Shown here: piece after piece, positions 6,001 through 6,824 of the stretch
How positions within the stretch are numbered: position 1 is the stretch's first letter
Layout: every line of letters starts with the position of its first letter
Virus record (IMG/VR): IMGVR_UViG_2548876698_000001
Span: 1 to 6,824 of that record
Source of the DNA: a virus
Lineage: Duplodnaviria > Heunggongvirae > Uroviricota > Caudoviricetes
Reading direction: 5' to 3' (one strand)
Length of the DNA: 6,824 nt
Made by a program: the position numbers

Positions 6001-6824
6001 TCAGGTGCTGATACTGAACTCACCGGGAGGCACCCGGCACCATGCATATGGTTAACAGACACGTAGCGAAGCCCCTCTCCGGAGGGGCTTTTTTTATGGG
6101 CAAAAAAAGCCCGCGCTGGGAGACGCGGGCGGCAAGGAATAAACAACAAAACGTGAAGTAATATTTCAGCTGGCGAATAATACCCCATGGTAATCACTCT
6201 GCGCAACTGCGCGGCCTTTTTCGAATTGCGGGCTGTAAGTCTCCCTTCTGCCATTGTCCTGTAACTTCCGGACTTCAGCCCGCTCTTTATCTGATTCAGT
6301 ACACTATCCCGGCCGGGAGGATTCATGACATTTAAACATTACGATGTGGTCAGGGCGGCATCGCCGTCAGACCTTGCTGATGCACTTGCGCAAAAAATTC
6401 GTGAAGGATGGCAACCATACGGTGGGCCGTTTTCTTCGTATACGGATGATGGCGCAGCACTTATTCAGGCGATTGTCGCAGAAGGTGATGTGAGCACACC
6501 TGTTGTGGTGAAGCCGACAGGTGGAGAAGGTGCAGTAATCAGTGCCACCAGCGACCCGGAGTATTACTTTGTTGTGGTTCTGGCAGGGCAGTCAAACGGC
6601 ATGTCGTATGGTGAAGGTCTTCCGCTGCCGGAGACATATGACCGTCCGGAGCCGCGTATTAAGCAACTGGCGCGTCGCAGTACGGTGACACCGGGTGGTG
6701 CAGCATGCAGATATAACGACATCATTCCGGCGGACCATTGTCTGCATGATGTGCAGGACATGAGCCGTCTTAACCATCCGAAAGCGGACCTGTCAAAGGG
6801 GCAGTACGGAACCGTGGGGCAGGG

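Follow-up and report, generated by a model that had tools for sequence, protein, structure and literature searches.

In Stx phages, nanS-p genes are encountered downstream of stx, as the first-pass annotation of the DNA analyzed here had stated in agreement with PMC10462455, and they are also present in non-Stx prophages, in which functional alleles have been described (PMC10462455, PMC8065619). Every tested nanS-p allele of EDL933 and O104:H4, including those of non-Stx prophages, is an active Neu5,9Ac2 esterase, and the tested alleles support growth on Neu5,9Ac2 and deacetylate mucin glycans; nanS-p expression rises with that of the late genes upon induction (PMC8065619; PMC10462455). In lambdoid prophages such as 933W (z1466/L0105) and phi24B (vb_24B_21, which is gp84), NanS-p consists of a DUF1737 domain followed by an SGNH/SASA domain with a GQSN motif, and its gene is a late one, placed after Q and before the lysis genes. 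The catalytic blocks of NanS have been defined as GQSNA (block I, with Ser19), RGGSAF (block II), MQGEFD (block III) and RxSHFS (block V) (PMC10792757), the QGE motif being specific to SASA and the Asp of block V being absent in NanS (PMC9487903). A module in which the PasD/STnc100 sRNA is followed by genes coding for a sialic acid esterase, a holin and a lysozyme has also been reported (bioRxiv 10.64898/2026.05.13.724894).

A stretch of viral DNA of 6,824 nucleotides (positions 1 to 6,824 of the IMG/VR record IMGVR_UViG_2548876698_000001), hereafter called the window, was compared with these systems. Its 3' extremity (6325-6824, + strand) very probably represents the first 166 codons of a prophage nanS-p gene of a lambdoid late operon, expected to code for a NanS paralogue of about 648 aa. 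Previous work has already described this family with its domain structure and its occurrence in stx-less prophages, as well as methyltransferase remnants of 50 aa and the STnc100/PasD sRNA next to the gene. The window gene has the same domain order and the same place as the NanS-p genes of 933W and phi24B, with 70% identity to this type in its first 166 aa, the loop and the linker of DUF1737 (aa 34-58) being divergent; unlike these systems, it is preceded neither by stx nor by tRNA genes. By its context, the allele was assigned to the class found beside a 352-aa methyltransferase gene, which is the D3 DUF1737 group of PMC10462455.

The esterase frame and its full-length relatives

A Shine-Dalgarno sequence GGAGG (6316-6320, + strand, within GGGAGG 6315-6320) was read directly 4 nt 5' of an ATG codon at position 6325, the spacer being ATTC. 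After translation, this ATG was found to open a frame of 166 codons without stop which reaches the end of the window at position 6824, so that both the ribosome binding site and the frame claimed by the first-pass annotation were recovered. The RefSeq/PGAP start codon agrees in near-identical copies, position 9076 of the Stx2c prophage L001 corresponding to position 6325 of the window. The probability of 166 open codons in a random sequence is about 3e-4, from (61/64)^166, but this value is irrelevant because of the homology of the fragment, whose 166 residues are all identical (166/166) to the N-terminus of the 648-aa RefSeq protein WP_064550303.1 (L001, 9076-11022). The 6325-6824 feature is therefore the 5' part of a sialate O-acetylesterase gene of the nanS-p type, which the end of the window interrupts. 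It is absent from the ORF list because it crosses this end, any ORF running off either extremity being omitted by rule. Its absence from the ORF track is a boundary artefact without biological meaning, and the gene is real, as had been proposed, although it is not listed. The window holds 26% of the gene and, among the catalytic blocks, block I only.

A DUF1737 domain was detected by Pfam at aa 3-53 (6331-6483, + strand; PF08410, E 2.5e-12), with 46.9 bits against a cutoff of 24 and over the full length of the model, which bears out the DUF1737-like N-terminus noticed earlier. The fragment alone was also aligned by phmmer, from aa 74 to 166 (6544-6822, + strand), with residues 14-106 of NanS/YjhS, the E. 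coli 9-O-acetyl-N-acetylneuraminate esterase of solved structure (PDB 3PT5_A, E 5.9e-33), this segment being the start of the SGNH/SASA catalytic domain. The GQSN active-site motif attributed to an SGNH sialate O-acetylesterase is found at aa 88-91 (6586-6597, + strand), inside the 3PT5 alignment; it corresponds to the conserved block I, and Ser90 is the predicted nucleophile, equivalent to Ser19 of NanS. The Pfam SASA model gave no match at E <= 1 on the 166-aa fragment alone, and passes its threshold on full-length relatives with identical first 166 aa. Thus, the NanS-p features accessible within the window were all found, namely DUF1737, the NanS-homologous SGNH start with GQSN and a position after Q.

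Pfam analysis of WP_064550303.1 revealed DUF1737, SASA (E 2.9e-10) and DUF6645 (E 6.9e-73). Residues 74-395 of this protein match 3PT5 (E 1.6e-115) and residues 427-643 match 6YP6 (E 1.2e-115), a crystal structure deposited as 'NanS-p' (C-terminal domain). Over aa 74-395, the full-length relatives are homologous to NanS/YjhS with blocks II, III and V of the same type, the Asp of block V being likewise missing, whereas the solved NanS chain has no counterpart of the DUF1737 N-terminus or of the DUF6645 C-terminal domain. The blocks GQSN, RGGSAF, MQGEFD and RASHFS (I-III and V) are intact in L001, in the stx-less prophages L004 and L005 and in the locus L010. In the window protein, RGGSAF, MQGEFD and RxSHFS are expected at aa 191, 249 and 373, past the window end, where they are seen in the relatives. 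From these homologies, the product is expected to possess an N-terminal DUF1737, a central SGNH/SASA esterase domain and a C-terminal lectin-like jelly-roll (DUF6645).

The locus L010 (NCBI assembly GCA_014105735.1) was reached by an exact-protein match of a window antirepressor (2723-3400). It is colinear with the whole window, without gap and with 99.71% identity, and its esterase ORF codes for 648 aa with all four blocks. The esterase gene is followed there by DUF1378, DUF826, holin, a 213-aa protein, lysozyme, Rz, DUF1441 and the large terminase subunit. The esterase gene is located upstream of holin/endolysin/Rz in L010 and in L001-L005, and Q is upstream of the esterase gene in the window itself. 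IS3-family transposase genes were observed shortly 3' of the esterase gene in the loci L006, L008, L012 and L013. The full ORF of about 640 aa predicted by the first-pass annotation thus corresponds to 648 aa in the closest relatives, and the lysis genes anticipated after it are found in these relatives with the DUF1378 and DUF826 genes in between; an early stop or an absence of catalytic residues was looked for in the closest copies and neither was present in any of them. These comparisons argue for a gene which is presumably intact past the window end. The type of the downstream allele is uncertain because L010, the best proxy of the whole window, differs from it at 20 positions, 13 of which cluster in 6543-6768, inside the esterase gene.

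The interval between Q and the esterase gene

The ORFs of the window were assigned by Pfam to P, NinB, Dam, NinG, NinH, two antirepressors and a Q of 144 aa; from the RefSeq annotation of relatives, ren is the ORF which separates P from NinB. The antiterminator Q (4986-5420, + strand; PF06530, E 9.5e-52) belongs to the Q933 size class, the Q classes being described in PMC10462455. Its presence had been claimed; it lies upstream of the esterase gene and should drive late transcription toward this gene. Rfam matches to isrK and to the C4 antisense RNA with its a1/b1 targets were observed at 2471-2669 (+ strand), just upstream of the tandem antirepressor genes (2723-3400 and 3469-4197), and the whole resembles an immunity module of the P1/P7 type, in which a C4 RNA would control ant. 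The stretch 2818-2952, at the 5' extremity of the first of these two genes, is unaligned to the ST130 and UTAK-1 prophages whereas both flanks align; it is another mosaic joint.

The spacer between Q and the esterase gene (5421-6324) corresponds to the region of the late terminators, to what remains of a methyltransferase gene and to an STnc100 gene. An intrinsic-terminator-like hairpin with a U-run is present downstream of Q (5671-5699, + strand; fold of -14.5 kcal/mol, z -3.3). Next comes the remaining 3' part of a DNA methyltransferase gene of 352 aa (5711-5821, + strand), whose last 37 codons give 34/37 aa (92%) identical to the C-terminus of the L004 methyltransferase. This remnant lies in a 50-aa ORF (5669-5821, + strand), and such 50-aa remnant ORFs are described in PMC10462455. 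A STnc100-family sRNA gene of full length (5901-6101, + strand) was highlighted directly upstream of the esterase gene by Rfam (RF02076, 148.1 bits against a gathering threshold of 47, E 7.3e-34), and it adjoins the esterase gene as in the reported PasD/STnc100 module. It ends in a strong terminator (6068-6091) with a U-run (-21.7 kcal/mol, z -3.5). Back-to-back hairpins, on the + strand at 6068-6091 and on the - strand at 6130-6109, form a bidirectional terminator between the sRNA and esterase genes (region 6068-6130). A 114-aa ORF of the minus strand (5982-6326), which abuts the esterase start, was also considered as a gene; it has no Pfam family, is unannotated in RefSeq relatives, also overlaps the STnc100 gene and is probably spurious.

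Stx-converting phages carry stxA/stxB between Q and nanS-p, and Stx2 phages typically carry the ileZ-argN-argO tRNA genes upstream of stx. As had been noticed for stx, the window has none of these genes: no tRNA gene was detected by ARAGORN (0 hits in the window), the tRNA block of relatives being skipped by the homology, no stx is present in the window, and no remnant of tRNA or stx is found in the spacer 5421-6324. The colinear L010 locus has no PF00161 or PF02258 gene. Lacking the defining stx between Q and nanS-p, the window does not qualify as an Stx phage. A stx gene could be located elsewhere in the host genome.

The position at which this cargo is carried in relatives (three tRNA genes, alone or with stx1/stx2 or TerB/DUF3927) was delimited by homology breaks at 5835-5867, a slot to which no strand is assigned. 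With the stx-less, tRNA-bearing UTAK-1 prophage (L003), homology stops at 5834 and resumes at 5858, skipping three tRNA genes, and with the Stx2c prophage L001 it starts at 5868, 42 bp past the stxB stop; L004, L005 and L010 are contiguous across the slot. Among the relatives compared (L001-L007, L010, L025 and L026), the slot contains nothing, three tRNAs, tRNAs with stx2, stx1, or tRNAs with TerB and DUF3927, a further content being a 306-aa reverse-strand ORF with TerB and DUF3927. Since its contents vary in this way, the slot is a variable cargo site, and it is empty in the window.

Mosaic relationships of the window

The left part of the window is related to Stx prophages: positions 1-5834 are 99.0% identical to the Stx2 prophage L015, and positions 2953-5708 are 99.5% identical to the Stx1a prophage of strain ST130, the similarity ending about 220 bp before stxA1. 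From position 5711 onward, the window is colinear (98-99%) with the stx-less prophages L004 and L005, which retain an intact methyltransferase gene. In stx-less prophages with the order Q, DNA methyltransferase, nanS-p, holin (for example O145:H28 RM13514 and 2011C-4251; L005 and L004), 5711-6824 is contiguous at 98.1-99.1% identity, without any tRNA/stx insert. L004 and L005 keep the intact 352-aa methyltransferase gene and other types of Q (126-aa or 273-aa class), whereas the Stx1/Stx2 phages, like the window with its Q of 144 aa, have only the last ~110 bp of the methyltransferase gene.

The first-pass annotation had considered that Q and nanS-p without stx mark an Stx-phage-like prophage. 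This conclusion stands by the identity with the Stx1a and Stx2 prophages and by the colinearity with stx-less prophages from position 5711, whereas the reasoning does not, since nanS-p and Q alone are no mark: nanS-p-like genes were found in 1,233 of the 5,426 complete E. coli genomes, with a median of 3 and a maximum of 8 places per genome. A link of the window allele with stx, as its best matches in the Stx2c prophages L001 and L026 could have indicated, was rejected because strain GE3, of commensal source, has the same 5' allele (99.3%) in a prophage without stx, where it follows tRNAs and the TerB and DUF3927 genes.

Within the remnant of the methyltransferase gene, the variants of the window are those of Stx2 phages at 5719, 5722, 5726 and 5745, and those of stx-less prophages at 5794 and 5830; this pattern implies a switch of relationship, with an inferred crossover interval at 5746-5793. 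Identity of the window with L010 is complete over 5700-6542, and with L004 over 5746-6599; 13 differences from L010 are then grouped in 6543-6768, as described above, and the allele of the Stx2c prophage L001 shows only 3 differences from the window after about 6100. These data point to recombination with a breakpoint inside the esterase gene or immediately upstream of it, the second switch of the closest relative being placed within 6100-6540. Such mosaicism is typical of lambdoid phages, and the SNP pattern suggests that a left arm resembling that of an Stx phage was recombined with a right arm devoid of stx. Few sites are informative and the direction is not inferable from them, so that the pattern is compatible both with a loss of stx, as the first-pass annotation had envisaged, and with its original absence.

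The exact double junction was found in one piece in 0 of the 5,426 complete E. coli genomes and in no phage record, and the double-junction pattern was found in no species-representative genome and in no metagenome contig. It is seen only in L010 and is uncommon. A two-anchor mosaic pattern was obtained for 8 IMG/VR contigs, all of which (8/8) are of the intact-methyltransferase type. A tentative and rather doubtful reading is that the window represents a recombinant of a rare kind: via two homology arms, the empty slot of a co-resident stx-less lambdoid prophage would have replaced the tRNA/stx cargo carried by an Stx-phage backbone. Such arms would be the conserved methyltransferase remnant (crossover at 5746-5793) and the nanS-p 5' region (switch within 6100-6540).

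Proposed function of the gene product and alternative explanations

The ORF could be a chance frame, or it could be the chromosomal nanS (yjhS) instead of a prophage gene. Nothing beyond the incompleteness of the ORF is in favor of either, and both are extremely improbable: the E-values of the fragment (1e-12 to 1e-33) argue against a chance ORF, NanS aligns only from aa 74 whereas the window protein has an extra N-terminal DUF1737 unmatched in the solved NanS chain, and the gene is located directly after the phage genes P, ren, ninB, dam, ant, ninG, ninH and Q. Chromosomal NanS is encoded with the nanCMS sialic-acid genes, outside prophage late operons. The frame could also be that of a pseudogene, intact in the window and broken downstream by a frameshift, a premature stop or an IS, in which case no full-length esterase would be produced. 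Among the 10 related loci compared, 5 have an esterase gene which is split or frameshifted, the products being of 509 + 88 aa in L006, L008 and L012, of 259 + 257 + 88 aa in L013 and of 526 + 134 aa in L014, and IS elements have been reported within nanS-p in some Stx2a phages (PMC10462455). Judged from these loci, pseudogenes of nanS-p are common. Nevertheless, four of the five disrupted loci (L006, L008, L012 and L013) share one prophage layout and are unlikely to be independent events, the three copies most similar to it in 5' allele and context (L001, L004 and L010) are intact 648-aa ORFs with all catalytic blocks (3/3), and the 166 visible codons show no sign of decay, which makes a broken gene in the window quite improbable.

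The remaining alternative bears on whom the enzyme serves and is compatible with an esterase chemistry. The protein would be chiefly a virion component and not a metabolic enzyme of the lysogen: its DUF1737 would anchor hexamers on the capsid hexons, and glycans of the mucus or of the cell surface would be the target of its esterase and lectin domains, to the benefit of the phage, before these domains are cleaved off. In phi24B, cryo-EM and proteomics located hexamers of the gp84 DUF1737 on hexons of the capsid, at the centre of each of its faces, and revealed a processing of gp84 (bioRxiv 10.64898/2026.04.10.717836, preprint). The gene also sits in the late operon with lysis and morphogenesis genes, and a phage-side role has been raised in a review (PMC8065619). 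On the other side, the window DUF1737 is only ~60% identical to the phi24B type, with the anchoring Tyr42 replaced by Asp and the SISSP processing motif by DVSTP; the capsid may differ, since the packaging genes of L010 (DUF1441 and a GpA-type terminase) contrast with the two 'terminase' genes found after the 933W-type allele of L003; the capsid report is a preprint on one phage; and a growth benefit of nanS-p to lysogens has been demonstrated experimentally (PMC8065619). A chiefly virion role is thus a genuine possibility, if on the whole an unlikely one, and for the window allele it can only be inferred by analogy with phi24B. A Tyr was observed at aa 39 of the window DUF1737, near the Asp42 which replaces the capsid 'tooth' Tyr42. 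The divergent DUF1737 variant may be adapted to a capsid type other than that of phi24B.

With a prophage nanS-p gene as the preferred identification, the following mechanism can be proposed. Upon prophage induction, Q would allow RNA polymerase to pass the intervening terminators and nanS-p would be transcribed. The Ser90 of GQSN, together with the QGE of block III and the His of block V, both encoded past the window, would then remove the 9-O-acetyl group of substrates such as Neu5,9Ac2 and mucin sialoglycans, and the deacetylated sugars would become usable by the sialic-acid catabolism of the host. Through its DUF1737 domain, the protein may in addition be attached to the phage capsid.

The finding is correct but ordinary and, beyond a correct annotation, carries little weight, although it illustrates that an ORF caller blind to truncated ORFs misses this well-characterized accessory gene. 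Through nanS-p, E. coli lysogens or their phages deacetylate the O-acetylated sialic acids of the gut mucus, and nanS-p copy number varies between pathogenic lineages. If the replacement of the tRNA/stx cargo by an empty slot is true, nanS-p and the upstream sRNA region would represent a portable homology by which the toxin cassette could be swapped in and out between prophages. As the slot of the window, devoid of stx and tRNA genes beside a Q of the Q933 type, serves to recall, the cargo between Q and nanS-p is variable, and the carriage of Shiga toxin genes should be deduced neither from nanS-p nor from Q933.
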